This document shows, piece after piece, positions 1 to 5,260 of a DNA stretch of 5,260 nucleotides. Location of the stretch: IMG/VR virus record IMGVR_UViG_2877285697_000002, positions 1-5,260 of that record. One strand, written 5' to 3'. This DNA is from a virus (taxonomy: Duplodnaviria > Heunggongvirae > Uroviricota > Caudoviricetes). The notes below the pieces were generated by a model. It worked only from the letters and a program-made list of their open reading frames with translations. It ran no database searches and had not been told where the DNA came from. Each line of letters starts with the position of its first letter. Within the stretch, counting starts at the first letter, position 1. A program made the translations under genes and the position numbers.

Positions 1-210
1 AACCGTCCTCCGTATCCTGTCATACGCGTAAAACAGCCAGCGCTGACGTGATTTAGCACCGACGTAGCCCCACTGTTCGTCCATTTCAGCGCAGACAATC
101 ACATCACTGCCCGGTTGTATGCGCGAGGTTACCGACTGCGGCCTGAGTTTTTTAAGTGACGTAAAACCGTGTTGAGGCCAACGCCCATAATGCGTGCACT
201 GGCGCGACAT
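1..210 (-). CDS. insB: IS1 InsB (transposase catalytic part), 5' portion only; runs off the window edge. Normally expressed as InsAB' by a -1 frameshift.
   Basis: Minus-strand frame starting at the ATG at 210 translates [64 protein letters not shown]..., matching IS1 InsB. Overlaps the insA 3' end with the A6C slippery motif. Confidence 0.85.
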
Positions 211-404
211 CCGACGCCATTCATGGCCATATCAATGATTTTCTGGTGCGTACCGGGCTGAGAGGCGGTGTAAGTGAACTGTAGTTGCCATGTTTTACGG
301 CAATGAGAGCAGAGATAGCGCTGATGTCCGGCAGTGCTTTTGCCGTTACGCACCACGCCTTCAGTAGCGGAGCAGGAAGGACATCTGATGGAAATGGAAG
401 CCAC
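129..404 (-). CDS. insA: IS1 InsA (transposition regulator, N-terminal part of the InsAB' transposase)
   Basis: 91-aa translation [43 protein letters not shown]... is near-identical to IS1 InsA as I remember it, with a few substitutions (iso-IS1 variant). Includes the zinc-finger-like CPSC...CSHC motif. Confidence 0.92.
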
Positions 405-459
405 GCAAGCACCTTAAAATCACCATCATACACTAAATCAGTAAGTTGGCAGCATTACC

Positions 460-912
460 TGATTCGATATCCTTTTTCCTGGCTTCAAGTTTTTGTTGCA
501 ATGCGCAGATTTCATGAAACCTTTTTGTTATTTCGTGTTCTGCGCTAAACATGCATTTATCTCTGGTCGGAGTAGGGAGCAATATATCTTCGCCGTTGCC
601 GTCTTTCCCATATGAATACCATCCAACCCTTCTGCCAGATACAGTCAGATAAATTGAAGTAGAACGAATATCGCATGAGTAAAATGAACATCCCATCTTT
701 TCAAGTTCTTCACTTATAGCTACCAACTTGGATGATAACTGATCCACTTCCTCAGTTTTCTTCTTCCCGCCAAACGCAACAACTCTGGCGTCAAGTGCAA
801 GCTGGTTCTTTAGCTTTGTTACTTCTTCAAGTTCAGTGAACACCCCGGACTTAATTAAAGCGTTGCGTGCTATTACTTCTTTTATTCTCGTTGTTAAGCG
901 GATTGATGACAT
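460..912 (-). pseudogene. Hypothetical prophage early-left operon protein, apparently interrupted at its 3' end by IS1. The open frame continues 8 codons into the IS1 inverted repeat before stopping at 433.
   Basis: ORF-track frame 433..927; the likely true start is the ATG at 912 (MSSIRLTTRIKEV...), preceded by GAGAGG 6 nt upstream. The reading frame crosses the IS1 boundary at 459/460. No family recognised; the sequence is charged and looks coiled-coil-like. Confidence 0.5.
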
Positions 913-973
913 ATTAATTCCTCTCAAATAAGTGGTTTGCTACCTAATTTCATTTTCTGGCGACCAACACAAG

Positions 974-1357
974 TCATCTTGCTGTCAGCTGTTTTGATTT
1001 CCGGTAGCCTGCCGCGTAAATGGCTACGTTTGGAAGACATACACCAGTTTCTGGTTGCTTATGTCCAAACTCATTCGCGTACACAATGGCCGCTCGCTCC
1101 AGATTGCGTCTGTATTCTTTCTGTTGCCAGATCACGTCCTGTGCCATGAACTTAATTGGCTTAGCGTCTTCTATGCGCTCAGGCGTTTCGTGAGTACCTT
1201 TAGCCTGAATCTGCGCTCTGCTTAGAGTAGGGCGGTGTAATACTTCTGAACTTATTGCTTCTTCGCGGGCCAGCACGCCGTTAGCTAATGCCTTTGCCTT
1301 TAAACGCTCACGACGACGAGAACGTGAATTGCCTTTGAACTGAGTTCTGCGTGTCAT
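974..1357 (-). CDS. N: N-like transcription antitermination protein (P22 gene 24 / lambda N family)
   Basis: N-terminal arginine-rich motif (GNSRSRRRERLKAKALANG) and C-terminus ...VAIYAAGYRKSKQLTAR resemble P22 gp24 (...VALYAAGHRKSKQITAR, from memory). Strong SD AGGAGG 4-5 nt upstream of the ATG at 1357. Sits downstream of a boxB hairpin and to the left of the repressor gene, as in lambda and P22. Confidence 0.75.
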   Translation of the reverse strand: MTRRTQFKGNSRSRRRERLKAKALANGVLAREEAISSEVLHRPTLSRAQIQAKGTHETPERIEDAKPIKFMAQDVIWQQKEYRRNLERAAIVYANEFGHKQPETGVCLPNVAIYAAGYRKSKQLTAR

Positions 1358-1522
1358 ATAGACCTCCTGATGAACTTTGGTGGTGTGGTAGGTGGGAGAC
1401 CCATTTTGACCTGTTTCGGCCTACTTCAATTCGGCAATAGTCCCGCAGGCCTCGCCGCTTTACGTGCGACATATTCCCGTCCATGAACCCTTCACCACAC
1501 CCCAAAGTTCACTTTGGTTATT

Positions 1523-1537
1523 GCGCTTTGTCAGCGC
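1523..1537 (-). promoter_or_regulatory. nutL boxB RNA hairpin (N-utilisation site)
   Basis: Minus strand reads GCGCTGACAAAGCGC: a 5-bp stem (GCGCU/AGCGC) with loop GACAA, matching P22 boxB as I recall it. Lies about 165 nt upstream of the N start. Not followed by a U-tract, so not a terminator. No convincing boxA found nearby. Confidence 0.6.
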
Positions 1538-1599
1538 CGTAGATTCATATTCGAATCGTTGTATATTCACCGCCCTGGTGAGTAGTGCGTCCTGCTGAT

Positions 1600-1710
1600 G
1601 GCTTAAAGATAATCTAGGTTATAGTGGTGGTCAATAACTTAATTTATGGATTCTGATAAATAAGTTATAAGTGATGGATAATAAAGGTATTTTATTTTTG
1701 TAAATGTTGC
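1600..1710 (-). promoter_or_regulatory. Putative OL/PL early-left promoter and operator region
   Basis: Candidate leftward promoter: -35 TTGACC (complement of 1629-1634), 17-bp spacer, -10 TATCTT (complement of 1606-1611). Shares motifs with the cI-cro intergenic region: GGTTAT-N11-ATAACTT at 1617-1640 versus 4016-4039; GTTATAAGTGATGG at 1664-1677 versus GTTATAAGTAATGG at 4052-4065; ATAATAAAGGT at 1680-1690 versus 4010-4020. Promoter hexamers assigned by eye only. Confidence 0.4.
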
Positions 1711-1813
1711 GGATTGGTCGGTATTGGAAGGGGGGCGCTGTATTGCTGGCGTGTTGGTTCGTGGTTTACCGCATTTGCGGCTGTTAAATATGGGGGACGA
1801 TCGCGAGGCAAAG

Positions 1814-1843
1814 AAAACCCGGCGCGGAAGCCGGGTTTGAGAT
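1814..1843 (-). terminator. Rho-independent terminator, bidirectional in shape and stronger for leftward transcription
   Basis: Stem CCCGGC (1818-1823) / GCCGGG (1830-1835) with a 6-nt loop. On the minus strand it is followed by TTTTCTTTG; on the plus strand by TTTGAGATTT. Confidence 0.5.
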
Positions 1844-1853
1844 TTAGTTATTT

Positions 1854-1988
1854 TCAGCAGCTCGGATAAGAGCGGAAGTGCTGACGAACATGTTCGAGCT
1901 CACCGAAACGTATGCGGCAGTAACTGCGCACATAAACCGGCTTGTCGTGTTCGTAGATGAAGTCATCGCGATTAACATCGTGAGCCAT
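1854..1988 (-). CDS. Possible small protein (44 aa), hypothetical
   Basis: Minus-strand ORF ATG(1988)...TGA(1854-1856) encoding MAHDVNRDDFIYEHDKPVYVRSYCRIRFGELEHVRQHFRSYPSC, with SD AGGAGA 6 nt upstream. Ends about 20 nt before the terminator at 1818-1835. Below the ORF-track size cut-off; no homology recognised. Confidence 0.3.
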   Translation of the reverse strand: MAHDVNRDDFIYEHDKPVYVRSYCRIRFGELEHVRQHFRSYPSC

Positions 1989-2014
1989 AGCTTTTCTCCT
2001 GTTTTTGTATACAG

Positions 2015-2133
2015 CCTGTTTACCCGAACAGGTTGTAGTTTGTTGGGAGAACCGCTATCCTTGGCTTGCGGTTGCCAAGGGTGTAGCGGTAGGTAATCCT
2101 CCATACACTTCGGAAATACTGGATATATTTCCG
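2015..2133 (-). other. Cluster of three stable stem-loops in a non-coding stretch (possible structured RNA or leader)
   Basis: Perfect inverted repeats: CCTGTT-tacccg-AACAGG (2015-2032); CCTTGGC-ttgcggtt-GCCAAGG (2059-2080); CGGAAATA-ctggata-TATTTCCG (2111-2133). None has a clear U-tract. Confidence 0.4.
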
Positions 2134-2136
2134 ACC

Positions 2137-2160
2137 CAAAAAGCCCCGTTCCCTCGGGGC
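2137..2160 (-). terminator. Rho-independent terminator immediately after the stop of the 177-aa gene
   Basis: GCCCCG (2143-2148), loop TTCCCT, CGGGGC (2155-2160). Minus-strand transcript reads GCCCCGagggaaCGGGGCTTTTTGGG. The stop codon of the upstream gene is at 2162-2164. Confidence 0.7.
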
Positions 2161-2161
2161 T

Positions 2162-2695
2162 TTATTCTTTTGTTCCGCCATCAATCATCGCAAAAGATTC
2201 CACAATCAGACTGATACGCTTGGCTTCATCTTTTGTCAGGTCGCGAGGCAGGTTGCCAATGGTGACGATAAGATCTCCGCGCAATGGAATCGGCAGTTCA
2301 AATGTTTTTACACCAACCTGTACGTCAGTTACCGCCTTCTTCTTAGGTGCCATCTTTTTACGCTCCTTTTTTTTATTTACATCACCAACTGACACATTAA
2401 TCTCACCATTCTGGTAGGAGATAAATTTATCAATAGCACTTTGCATCCGGCTTTTGTATGCCTGCAAAGATGATTCAGAGGGTTTGCTTTCTGCTGAGTC
2501 TGCGTACGAACTTGCTAAGTTGGCAACGCTATAATCACGGATATCGGCATCGGTGAAATCCGACCCAAGAACAGTAAGAAGGCGCAGGGAAGAGTCACGG
2601 AGATTGCGGGCTGTAGCATCATTGACGATACCAAGCTCAGGAAGCATCTGTAAGAAGTCCTGAAATGCTTTGATGGTGTAGCTTTTGGTTTGCAT
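2162..2695 (-). CDS. Hypothetical protein, 177 aa, unknown function; accessory (moron-like) gene in the rexAB-equivalent position
   Basis: Uninterrupted ORF with its own terminator. Contains a lysine-rich linker (KKKERKKMAPKKK) between two predicted domains. No family recognised from memory. The start codon at 2695 is immediately preceded by a hairpin and T-tract, with the only SD-like GAGG inside the hairpin arm. An alternative internal start (Met17, near 2647) cannot be excluded. Confidence 0.65.
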   Translation of the reverse strand: MQTKSYTIKAFQDFLQMLPELGIVNDATARNLRDSSLRLLTVLGSDFTDADIRDYSVANLASSYADSAESKPSESSLQAYKSRMQSAIDKFISYQNGEINVSVGDVNKKKERKKMAPKKKAVTDVQVGVKTFELPIPLRGDLIVTIGNLPRDLTKDEAKRISLIVESFAMIDGGTKE

Positions 2696-2722
2696 AAAAA
2701 AGCCTCATACAGTTGATGAGGC
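2696..2722 (-). terminator. Hairpin plus U6 tract directly abutting the ATG of the 177-aa gene; candidate terminator/attenuator that sequesters the SD
   Basis: Minus strand reads GCCTCAT-caactgt-ATGAGGC-TTTTTT-ATG. The 7-bp stem 2702-2722 contains GAGG 7 nt upstream of the start codon. Confidence 0.5.
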
Positions 2723-2884
2723 AATACTAATTTGATCGTCAAAACAAATCAAGACCCAAGAAACAATCGTTGATTCCTTTCTTTGTGACAATACAGTCAA
2801 ATCAAGTTTTACAAGGATTACTTTTCTTCGATTACATTAAAGGCCGCACTTCTGCGACCATCCATCACCAAAATGTCTCTTCAC

Positions 2885-3226
2885 TCATCCGAAGAAGCAG
2901 CAATCCGGGTCAGCACGCACAAGCTCAAGCGCATCAGTCAGCGAAAGTTCAGTACTGTACTGATGCCATTTCATATCCTTCCGCATCCAATAGATTTTCC
3001 ATCTATCCAGAGAACGTATGTACTTGATTCTTGCTGATGGCAGGATGTTTGTTTCACCTGGGTTGCCCTGCCACACGGGGCGCTGTTCGCCGATATCTAT
3101 CGTTTGGTCATTGATGCTATAAACAATATCCAGTTCATTGCGGATATGTTCAGGCGGCCTTATGCTTTCAATGAATTGGTGAACTTCTTTTTTGACCGCT
3201 TGATATTCAAGGTCAGTGAACGCCAT
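2885..3226 (-). CDS. DUF3024-like small protein (113 aa), unknown function; immediately downstream of the repressor gene and probably co-transcribed with it
   Basis: Translation contains ...RPPEHIRNELDIVY...WKIYWMRKDMKWHQY...CCFFG, which resembles the conserved core of DUF3024 family proteins as I recall them (RPP.H.R..L...Y, W.LYWMRRDLKWH.Y, terminal FFG). SD GAGGAGG 4 nt upstream of the ATG at 3226. Only 37 bp from the repressor stop codon. Confidence 0.75.
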   Translation of the reverse strand: MAFTDLEYQAVKKEVHQFIESIRPPEHIRNELDIVYSINDQTIDIGEQRPVWQGNPGETNILPSARIKYIRSLDRWKIYWMRKDMKWHQYSTELSLTDALELVRADPDCCFFG

Positions 3227-3263
3227 CTATCCTCCTCACCCAAACGTTTCTTCAGGCCACTGG

Positions 3264-3971
3264 TTACCAGCTATGCGATGACCAGAATACTCTGCCAATA
3301 ATCCTTACGGTTTTATGAAATTCATCTCTATCCATTACTTCATCCGGGTACTCTTCGCGATTTATTGATCTGATTATCACCGATGTAGGAGTGGCGATTA
3401 ATGTTTTTACTCGCAACAAATCAGACTGGCAAATAGCGTAGGTTTTACCATCTCTGATGGTGGTATCTTGTGTGTTAACACCAACAACATCGCCATCGTG
3501 AAGAGTTGGTTCCATGCTTTGACCTGTTACCCTTACCAGCTTGGCAGAACTTTCAGTTACCCCCATCTTTTTCAGATAGTACTTTCTGAAAACCAAAGAG
3601 AACTCTGATGATTCTTCTATCTCGCAGCTACCGCTTCCAGCCGAAAACGAAACGTTAAGAAGAGGCAATGCGACAAACTCGTCATCGTTTTTTTTAATGT
3701 CTTCCCATACCACAGCTTTTAAAGATGACTCACGGATATTGGATGGTTCTTCATGTGTACCATCCCTCATTTCACCAATACCAGAACTAAGCCATTCAGG
3801 GCGTACTTTTAAAGCATTAGCTAACTCAACCATCTTGCGAGATCCGTTTGTTTTACCGGATGACATCTTCTGTATGGCTGGCTGAGATATTCCAACCATG
3901 TCCGCAAGCTGTGATTGCGACACCCCTGCCGATCTCATGGCTGCATTTAGTCTTTCTGCGAATGTTTTCAT
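3264..3971 (-). CDS. cI: CI-like prophage repressor: N-terminal XRE-type HTH plus C-terminal S24 (LexA-like) autopeptidase domain
   Basis: HTH: QSQLADMVGISQPAIQKMSSGK. S24 signature GQSMEPTL (catalytic Ser) with a downstream LRVKTL (catalytic Lys). Candidate Ala-Gly cleavage site in FSAGSG. Divergent from a cro-like gene across an operator region. The start is placed at ATG 3971 (MKTFAERL...); the ORF-track TTG at 4001 has no SD and is judged less likely. Confidence 0.85.
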   Translation of the reverse strand: MKTFAERLNAAMRSAGVSQSQLADMVGISQPAIQKMSSGKTNGSRKMVELANALKVRPEWLSSGIGEMRDGTHEEPSNIRESSLKAVVWEDIKKNDDEFVALPLLNVSFSAGSGSCEIEESSEFSLVFRKYYLKKMGVTESSAKLVRVTGQSMEPTLHDGDVVGVNTQDTTIRDGKTYAICQSDLLRVKTLIATPTSVIIRSINREEYPDEVMDRDEFHKTVRIIGRVFWSSHSW

Positions 3972-4082
3972 ATCCACAAATCTATAACTACGGTTATCCA
4001 AAGTAAAATAATAAAGGTTATTGCTATTTTTTATAACTTGGGTTATCCTTGGTTATAAGTAATGGCTGAAAGAGGTATGCTC
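3972..4082. promoter_or_regulatory. OR-like divergent promoter/operator region (PRM leftward, PR rightward) with repeated GGTTAT/ATAAC half-sites
   Basis: Half-sites: ATAAC-n4-GTTATCC at 3984-4000 and 4033-4049; GGTTAT-N11-ATAAC at 4016-4037; GGTTATAAGTAATGG at 4051-4065. Candidate PR: -35 TTGCTA (4021-4026), 17-bp spacer, -10 TATCCT (4044-4049). Exact promoter elements not resolved. Confidence 0.6.
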
Positions 4083-4307
4083 ATGAATTTAGTAATTCAA
4101 CGAGCCTTGAAGATTGTCGGTAGTCAAAAGCGGCTTGCCGACAAGTGTGGTGTAACGCAGCCAGCAGTACACAAATGGCGGAAAGGCGGGCAGGTTTCTC
4201 CAGAGAAAGTTACCGCCATCGTTAACGCCACTGGAGGGCAGATCAAGGCTTACGAAATTCGCCCAGATTTACCACACCTGTTTCCAAAACCGAATCAGGC
4301 AGCATAA
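4083..4307 (+). CDS. cro: Cro-like small HTH regulator (Cro/YdaS-type)
   Basis: 74 aa from ATG 4083 with SD AGAGG (4071-4075) 7 nt upstream. HTH-like QKRLADKCGVTQPAVHKWRKGG. Divergent from the repressor gene; small size and position are typical of Cro. Confidence 0.8.
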   Translation: MNLVIQRALKIVGSQKRLADKCGVTQPAVHKWRKGGQVSPEKVTAIVNATGGQIKAYEIRPDLPHLFPKPNQAA

Positions 4308-4314
4308 GTAACAC

Positions 4315-4360
4315 CGCTATTTTCACAATGGGCATTCGTCCTACGTCGCTGACAAAGCGA
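4315..4360 (+). promoter_or_regulatory. nutR-like site: boxA-like CGCTATTTT followed by a boxB hairpin
   Basis: boxA-like 4315-4323 (CGCTATTTT versus consensus CGCTCTTTA). boxB 4346-4360 TCGCTGACAAAGCGA: 5-bp stem with loop GACAA, the same loop as the nutL boxB at 1523-1537. Located between cro and cII, as in lambda. Confidence 0.55.
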
Positions 4361-4445
4361 GTTCCAAGATATCTGACCAACTAAGGCCATATGCGTTTCC
4401 ATGCATACCTTTCAACTAACTATTCACTATTGGAAATCTTAAGAA

Positions 4446-4745
4446 ATGGAACAAACAAGTTACAGCAAACTATCACAGCGCGATGTTGATCGCGCAGAAA
4501 CAGATTTACTCATCAACCTGTCAACGCTTACCCAGCGCGGTCTGGCAAAGATGATTGGCTGTCATGAATCGAAGATAAGCAGAACGGACTGGAGATTTAT
4601 TGCTTCGGTCTTGTGTGCTTTCGGAATGGCATCAGACATCAGTCCGATTAGCAGGGCTTTTAAGTATGCGCTTGATGGACTCACCAATAAAAAACGCCCG
4701 GTGTGCAAGACCGAGCGTTCTGATCAAATACAAATGGAATTCTGA
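4446..4745 (+). CDS. cII: CII-like transcriptional activator (lambda CII family)
   Basis: C-terminus ...LTNKKRPVCKTERSDQIQMEF closely matches lambda CII ...LTNKKRPAATERSEQIQMEF (from memory). HTH region KMIGCHESKISRTDW aligns with lambda AVGVDKSQISRWKRDW. Position right of cro matches. Confidence 0.88.
   Translation: MEQTSYSKLSQRDVDRAETDLLINLSTLTQRGLAKMIGCHESKISRTDWRFIASVLCAFGMASDISPISRAFKYALDGLTNKKRPVCKTERSDQIQMEF
4455..4468 (-). promoter_or_regulatory. Candidate CII-binding site / PRE -35 region (TTGC-N6-TTGT on the minus strand)
   Basis: Complement of 4455-4468 reads TTGCtgtaacTTGT, one mismatch from the TTGC-N6-TTGC CII recognition repeat. Lies in the 5' end of cII and is oriented leftward, as in lambda PRE. 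Confidence 0.35.
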
Positions 4746-4777
4746 GGTCATTACTGGATCTATCAACAGGAGTAATT

Positions 4778-5260
4778 ATGACATACGAAAATGACAAATT
4801 CCAGGTTCTGAAGAGCATGAAGGTGCCAGATGATTTTAAATCAAATGGCTTTGTTTATGTGCTTTCGAATGAGTGCATGCCAGGAATTTATAAGATTGGG
4901 ATGACTAAGCATTCACCAGAAGTTAGGGCTAAAGAAATTTCAGCCTCTACTGGCGTTCCTAAGCCATTTAAGGTGATAGCAGCCTTTCATTCAAATAATC
5001 CCGCATCAGATGAAAAACTCATTCATAAAGCCTTTGCAAAAGAGAGGCTTAGTGATAATCGAGAGTTTTTCAAGCTTGAAGATAATGATCTTTCTGAATC
5101 TCTAAATGAAATAAGGGCGCTGGTTGGCCCTGAAAGAAATGGCGAGACGGCAGAATACGCAATTTACGACTCATTCATTTCTTTTCGCCATGAAAATGAG
5201 CTTGATCTTAATGAGGAGCTTATAGAGCAAGGTCTGGGTAGTGTAGTTGGTCTGAGGTAG
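4778..5260 (+). CDS. T5orf172 / GIY-YIG-like domain protein (160 aa); putative nuclease-fold accessory protein
   Basis: N-terminal region GFVYVLSNECMPGIYKIGMTKHSPEVRAKEIS...FKVIAAFH...REFFK fits the T5orf172 (MUG113) / GIY-YIG pattern as I recall it (YVL.N...KIG.T...R..E...H..FF). SD AGGAG 6 nt upstream of the ATG at 4778. Stop codon TAG at 5258-5260. Confidence 0.7.
   Translation: MTYENDKFQVLKSMKVPDDFKSNGFVYVLSNECMPGIYKIGMTKHSPEVRAKEISASTGVPKPFKVIAAFHSNNPASDEKLIHKAFAKERLSDNREFFKLEDNDLSESLNEIRALVGPERNGETAEYAIYDSFISFRHENELDLNEELIEQGLGSVVGLR

Follow-up and report, generated by a model that had tools for sequence, protein, structure and literature searches.

The insertion sequence IS1 transposes by means of InsAB', a transposase that arises from a -1 frameshift at the A6C motif. 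InsAB' joins the ends of the element to target DNA cut with a 9-bp stagger, and a 9-bp duplication is left once the cut has been repaired. The 'canonical' IS1 elements of K-12 and R100 are IS1A and IS1R, and an iso-IS1 diverging from them by about 10% was reportedly first described by Ohtsubo et al. in 1981, in Shigella dysenteriae. In the classical polar insertions (e.g., in gal), IS1 lies within a polycistronic operon, as it does in the locus studied here, whose setting is a PL-type promoter, an N gene and a nut site; the two situations differ in that no downstream genes are left in our locus for polarity to act on.

The gene that is interrupted in this locus has close intact relatives in Stx1a-converting phages (e.g., LC727891), PhiR12_1 to PhiR12_5, HK542, HK244, mEp235 and E. 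coli prophages, with 95-99% DNA identity by megablast across the part retained here. In these relatives the gene likewise stands directly after N, and in the E. coli prophages it is annotated as 'Nmad5 family putative nucleotide modification protein'. There it runs uninterrupted for 207 codons, and cIII, kil, gam, bet, exo or equivalents come after it, whereas here it is split by IS1. The role of Nmad5 in nucleotide or DNA base modification is given by a family name that comes from computational prediction. The sole experimental data on Nmad5 that we found concern a longer Dhillonvirus protein, in which a point mutation enables phages to evade the Tmn defence system; the wild-type form of its gene resisted cloning, apparently owing to toxicity (PMC11846954).

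Our analyses concerned a 5,260-nucleotide stretch of viral DNA (IMG/VR record IMGVR_UViG_2877285697_000002, positions 1 to 5,260), referred to in its entirety as the window, which had previously been interpreted from its letters alone (the sequence-only reading). The reverse complement of the window occurs without any difference at positions 5653-10912 of a source locus (L003) in the chromosome CP026827.1. We are very nearly certain that at this locus a complete, apparently functional IS1F-type IS1 transposed into codons 149-151 of a 207-codon Nmad5 gene, the first gene after N in the early-left (PL) operon of a lambdoid prophage.

The IS1 element at the left end of the window

The left end of the window lies within an IS1 element, to whose left part the following features were assigned.

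1 to 459, minus strand: left part of IS1 (nucleotides 1-459 of 768), IS1F-type, the window being cut inside the element
437 to 459, minus strand: left terminal inverted repeat (IRL) of IS1, GGTAATGCTGCCAACTTACTGAT, read from 459 down to 437
129 to 404, minus strand: insA, 91 amino acids, GTG start, with both InsA Pfam domains
147 to 153, minus strand: AAAAAAC (A6C), the -1 frameshift motif, at IS1 nucleotides 307-313, the position that it has in K-12 IS1A
1 to 210, minus strand: 5' part of the insB' frame (IS1 nucleotides 250-459), placed by the K-12 IS1A annotation and cut at the window edge

Positions 1-459 were identical to K-12 IS1F at 457 of 459 positions and to K-12 IS1A at 418 of 459, in both cases without gaps, and the ungapped identity to IS1F excluded a chance match. 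Read on the plus strand, this part of the window ends in ...GTAAGTTGGCAGCATTACC, with its last base at 459, which on the minus strand is the IRL GGTAATGCTGCCAACTTACTGAT. A promoter-like match (CTGCCA, a 16-nt spacer and TATGAT) was found within or near the IRL, from 452 to 425 on the minus strand. The insA product contained the zinc-ribbon and helix-turn-helix domains of the family (Zn_ribbon_InsA, PF03811, 71.1 bits; HTH_Tnp_IS1, PF12759, 103.3 bits).

The full copy of the element was located at 10454-11221 of L003. It is 768 bp long and is bounded by imperfect inverted repeats of about 23 bp that begin GGTRATG, as is characteristic of the IS1 family; the partner of the IRL, the IRR GGTAATGACTCCAACTTACTGAT, lies in L003, the window itself holding only the IRL and nucleotides 1-459. 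The insB' frame of the full copy is open for 174 codons, the same as in IS1A, and the DDE_Tnp_IS1 domain (PF03400) was recorded on the L003 and L004 gene calls. A frameshift site and an open DDE transposase frame were thus both present in the sequence, with frameshifting itself being predicted. Based on both inverted repeats, the A6C motif and the open insB' frame, this copy of IS1 is apparently competent for transposition.

Comparison with the K-12 IS1F of MG1655 (NC_000913.3, 4518472-4519239) showed identity at 762 of 768 positions (99.2%) over 768 bp, with no indels. The two share the IRL variant (GGTAATG...) and the A6C site, and their InsA proteins differ at two residues (relative to InsA7). 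They differ in their insertion sites and in that insB7 of the K-12 copy is annotated as a pseudogene, whereas the B' frame here is open for 174 codons. IS1A and IS1R agree with the element described here in length, organisation, frameshift site and 9-bp duplication, but IS1A is identical to it at only 699 of 768 positions (91.0%), again with no indels, and five InsA residues differ from those of InsA1 (V4I, S7R, D15E, T69S and I80V). The sequence-only reading had called the element an iso-IS1 variant on account of residues at which its InsA differs from the K-12 copy. This holds relative to IS1A, but the contrast with K-12 does not, as K-12 also carries the IS1F type. The element is best described as IS1F-type, by its sequence a variant that is present in K-12 too.

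The interrupted Nmad5 gene and its duplicated flanks

Immediately beyond the IRL, the minus strand carries the beginning of an Nmad5-family gene, and three features define the junction.

460 to 912, minus strand: native codons 1-151 (453 nt) of an Nmad5-family gene (Pfam PF18757), which has 207 codons when intact
433 to 459, minus strand: IS1-encoded tail of the chimeric ORF, eight codons (GNAANLLI) and a TAG stop at 433-435, from reading of the sequence
460 to 468, minus strand: one copy of the 9-bp target-site duplication, ATCGAATCA, the second copy lying beyond the far end of IS1

The chimeric ORF (433-912, minus strand) begins with an ATG at 912, and its native part is followed by GGT AAT GCT GCC AAC TTA CTG ATT TAG. 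The ORF matched PF18757 with 131.5 bits (cut-off 27; E = 5.6e-38) over profile positions 1-154 of 206, while an intact homologue matched it with 239.8 bits over the entire profile (1-206/206). The window copy is therefore a member of the family by its score above the gathering threshold, with partial coverage of the profile. Alignment with 207-residue homologues showed the proteins to be collinear through residue 151, after which the IS1-encoded tail begins. The intact gene is 624 bp in length and encodes 207 amino acids in both annotated examples (PhiR12_1 and the prophage of E. coli FDAARGOS_944), and a length of 207 was also found in 11 of the 15 members listed of a 2,436-member cluster at 90% identity. 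The intact copy matches PHROG 1965, a family of 'unknown function', over positions 2-208 of 208. No match to Nmad5 was found among the PADLOC profiles.

The chimeric product is 159 amino acids long; missing from it are the 56 residues of the conserved C-terminus, which make up a quarter of the Nmad5 domain. Judging solely by the removal of this conserved quarter, the gene has most probably been inactivated. The 159-residue chimera (window 436-912, minus strand) is identical to the RefSeq protein WP_158499417.1 (WNT67209.1), which is labelled Shigella dysenteriae. In RefSeq this protein bears the name 'Nmad5 family putative nucleotide modification protein' and has no pseudogene flag.

Extension of the sequence beyond the window revealed the far side of the element. 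In L003, IS1 is flanked at 10445-10453 and at 11222-11230 by ATCGAATCA, a perfect 9-bp duplication of the length usual for IS1. Past the far copy the sequence continues AAT GTA TGG GCT GCT TTG AAC..., which translates as NVWAALNSVTTVKRLIEVWPESKELLPKEADKASTALPALRVEDLNKMIGLPSEAA followed by a stop and is the missing 56-codon C-terminus, in frame. A blastn comparison with the uninterrupted E. coli FDAARGOS_944 locus (L001) gave two collinear segments that overlap by 9 bp in the subject (5001-5009). Excision in silico of IS1 and one repeat produced an open gene of 207 codons whose product differs by three residues from the FDAARGOS_944 homologue. The identical 9-bp flanks, the adjacent 56 codons and the restored 207-codon frame together indicate a simple IS1 transposition and not a deletion or rearrangement.

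These findings bore out what the sequence-only reading had proposed about the junction. It had placed the end of the IS1 inverted repeat at 459 and had described an upstream minus-strand ORF that crosses the junction, acquires eight IS1 codons and stops, and all of these coordinates were right. It had also proposed that the native C-terminus was displaced, which agrees with the divergence from the 207-residue homologues exactly after residue 151, and had suggested looking leftward for the other end of IS1 and an 8-9 bp duplication, both of which were found there. Homologues that naturally end at the position of the break, or absence of the rest of the gene from the far side of IS1, would have spoken against that reading; the homologues have 207 residues, and the 56 codons lie directly beyond the element.

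An exact protein look-up located the 159-residue chimera in five contigs, two of which are complete chromosomes, CP026827.1 (4.56 Mb) and CP119450.1 (4.64 Mb), and three of which are short-read contigs that break inside IS1, as expected at a repeat. An assembly artefact was ruled out by the identical junction in the two complete genomes and in three independent short-read assemblies. The two complete genomes differ at 3 of 20,480 positions, all outside the phage segment; they represent one lineage and therefore provide no comparative signal on selection or retention. The 47-nt IS1/Nmad5 junction had no exact match in a scan of the GTDB representative genomes. Similarly, no record spanning the junction came from megablast searches with window positions 1-1400 and 380-560 against the 5,426 complete genomes of an E. 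coli collection, which therefore lacks the insertion.

A further ORF was noted across the junction. It lies at 285-548 on the plus strand (L003 10365-10610, minus strand), would encode 81-87 amino acids and runs antisense from IS1 into Nmad5. Gene calling in both complete genomes picked it up, and it had no Pfam match. With no family match, we treated it as probably a spurious call.

The early-left operon and the prophage remnant

Upstream of the Nmad5 gene, the window contains a set of features resembling the control region of a lambdoid early-left operon.

974 to 1357, minus strand: gene for an N-type antiterminator, 127 amino acids (Pfam N_peptide, 57.5 bits, cut-off 27.9)
1524 to 1536, minus strand: boxB-like hairpin CGCTGACAAAGCG with a GACAA loop, a putative nutL, between the PL-like promoter and N
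1606 to 1634, minus strand: PL-like promoter by consensus match (TTGACC, 17-nt spacer, TATCTT)
1608 to 1623: operator-like repeat TATAACnnnGGTTAT, by repeat match, overlapping the PL-like promoter
4347 to 4359, plus strand: boxB-like hairpin CGCTGACAAAGCG, a putative nutR, between cro and cII

The N gene lies 61 bp upstream of the interrupted Nmad5 gene in the same orientation, and its counterpart in phage PhiR12_1 is annotated as 'antitermination protein N'. Exactly two exact copies of CGCTGACAAAGCG occur in the window, and none occurred in 200 shuffles; these hairpins resemble the P22-type boxB and would thus be nutL and nutR. Better copies of the TATAACnnnGGTTAT repeat than the one at the PL-like promoter are present in the cI/cro intergenic region (3983-4057), at 3983-3997, 4007-4021 and 4032-4046. 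The operator-like repeats gave nine strand-matches in all, against 0.34 expected. Thus an N gene, boxB, a promoter and co-oriented genes, the components of a lambdoid PL/N operon, were all recognised, the promoter and boxB at the level of consensus matches. A layout of PL, nutL, N and Nmad5 is supported by sequence and by synteny with PhiR12_1 and the FDAARGOS_944 prophage, with the promoter and the nut site being putative. The direction of insA is that of PL transcription.

The N gene of the window is a full 127-codon ORF. In the prophage of E. coli FDAARGOS_944 (L001), which is otherwise 99.25% identical without gaps, N is annotated as a 69-bp partial pseudogene (5515-5583).

The surviving phage DNA amounts to about 5 kb, comprising window positions 460-5252 and 202 bp beyond IS1. 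On the far side of IS1, phage homology ends at L003 11432, 31 bp past the Nmad5 stop. Beyond this point lie an end fragment of an IS3-family element (TGAAGTGGTCAACAAAAACTGGCC..., about 114 bp, L003 11433-11546), a truncated and inverted IS600 from 11547, and a complete IS600 of 1264 bp at 12402-13665. Past the IS600 copies we found a 198-residue Phage_integrase fragment and then the chromosomal genes DUF1175/MagC, DUF2138, gyrA and one for a methyltransferase of the UbiE type. On the opposite side, a T5orf172/MUG113 ORF at the window's right end (4778-5260) is cut by IS600 at 5252/5253. Compared with the intact 214-codon gene of Escherichia phage CurroJimenez_Bas106 it shows two mismatches in 475 nt, and the identity ends at 5252. 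Positions 5253-5260 (TGAGGTAG) are the first 8 nt of the IS600 inverted repeat, which continues in L003, so that the truncated ORF consists of 158 native codons, two IS600 codons and a stop. Past this IS600 there are IS4- and IS66-family genes.

All genes in the flanks of the remnant belonged either to IS elements or to the chromosome. Genes for replication, lysis or structural proteins were absent from the 10 kb on either side, and because of this the remnant cannot be an inducible phage. The locus is a prophage remnant of a Shigella dysenteriae chromosome, the organism being taken from the label of the RefSeq protein. By sequence, cI (a helix-turn-helix domain and an S24 peptidase), N, the boxB-like nutL and the PL-like signals seem to be undamaged.

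Between cI and N, where lambda has rexAB, there are two genes, and a hairpin adjoins one of them.

2885 to 3226, minus strand: DUF3024 protein, 113 amino acids, next to cI, matching the PADLOC candidate defence family PDC-S43 at full length (E = 7e-42)
2162 to 2695, minus strand: 177-residue protein of PHROG 2602, a family of unknown function
2140 to 2163: terminator-like hairpin

An Rfam scan of the window yielded no family at the gathering threshold.

The sequence-only reading had assigned the interrupted gene to the N (early-left) operon, in agreement with the co-oriented N_peptide gene 61 bp upstream, the P22-type boxB and the PL-like promoter. Its suggestion of a defective prophage also stood, and decay has gone further than it had supposed, with no more than about 5 kb of the phage left between IS elements. 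It had further proposed that IS1 would exert polarity on distal early-left genes. This proposal did not survive extension of the sequence, as homology to the intact prophages stops just past Nmad5 and the distal set of cIII, kil, gam, bet, exo, xis and int is missing downstream of it at the locus, where the IS copies and the 198-residue integrase fragment follow. The polarity argument is moot because no distal early-left genes remain. Adhya, Gottesman and de Crombrugghe are said to have shown in 1974 that N-modified transcription overrides IS polarity, passing through the terminators that an IS carries. By this analogy, N-modified transcription in an ancestral intact prophage would probably have largely overridden the polarity of IS1.

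Origin and significance of the insertion

The window by itself is compatible with another origin of the junction, as it is cut inside IS1. An IS1-mediated rearrangement, such as an adjacent deletion, an inversion or recombination between IS1 copies, would make the element a breakpoint at which the 3' end of the gene had been lost or moved, and this would fit a region that is dense in IS elements and a prophage that has lost most of its DNA. However, in the source chromosome the far end of IS1 leads to the same 9 bp, the 56 in-frame codons and the stop, and both segments are collinear with the uninterrupted homologue. We rejected a deletion or inversion breakpoint on the basis of the 9-bp flanks and the collinear restored gene, and regard such an origin as having practically no chance of being correct. 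We give equally negligible credence to the gene at 460-912 being a naturally short isoform that IS1 merely adjoins. The naming of the 159-residue product as an ordinary Nmad5 in RefSeq is the only point in its favour, and it was rejected since the homologues have 207 residues (11 of the 15 listed cluster members), the Pfam and PHROG profiles run about 50 positions further, and the last eight residues come from codons within the inverted repeat of IS1.

A different kind of proposal accepts the insertion but gives it a function, either as a selected inactivation of a harmful Nmad5 or as a coupling of IS1 to read-through from an SOS-inducible, N-antiterminated PL. The uncloneable and apparently toxic Nmad5 of Dhillonvirus (PMC11846954), the intact appearance of cI, N, the boxB-like nutL and the PL-like signals, the match of the DUF3024 gene beside cI to PDC-S43 and the co-orientation of insA with PL can all be cited for it. 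However, the Dhillonvirus Nmad5 is a longer, different protein, and its toxicity allows, but does not support, an advantage from Nmad5 inactivation. In addition, a single clonal lineage carries the IS1 insertion, providing no comparative evidence of selection, and a remnant truncated by IS elements on both sides is the pattern expected from neutral decay. We therefore consider a functionally meaningful insertion very unlikely. The same slim likelihood attaches to the speculation that the remnant as a whole (cI with its S24 peptidase, the PDC-S43-like DUF3024 protein, the 177-residue protein, N, nutL and PL) is a domesticated, SOS-responsive immunity or defence module in which IS1 is not neutral. 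If that speculation were true, IS1 would detoxify Nmad5, or its expression or transposition would answer DNA damage via PL.

For the simple transposition of IS1 into Nmad5 that we favour, the course of events can be outlined as follows. InsAB', produced by the -1 frameshift at A6C, would have joined the IS1 ends to a 9-bp stagger in the gene, and repair would have created the duplication of ATCGAATCA. The 5' fragment of Nmad5 now reads through the IRL for eight codons before a stop, giving the 159-residue chimera, and it does so because insA is co-oriented with PL transcription. Other IS elements (IS600, the IS3-family fragment, IS4 and IS66) have cut the remnant back to about 5 kb. The order that remains is PL-N-Nmad5 on the left, then the cI-proximal accessory cassette and cI-cro-cII, with the truncated T5orf172 on the right.

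As an IS1 insertion this one is canonical, it stands in a public genome that had been annotated before, and nothing in it is novel. Textbooks describe both the expansion of IS1 and the decay of prophages in Shigella, and the importance of the finding is accordingly small. The locus does serve as an example of an IS junction and its consequences being called correctly by a reader from raw sequence alone. It also shows that WP_158499417.1, for all its ordinary Nmad5 name, is the fragment of a pseudogene cut short by an IS, and that its tail is encoded by IS1. For the biology of the organism, the insertion is one step in the IS-driven decay that is typical of Shigella genomes, with no evident further function.
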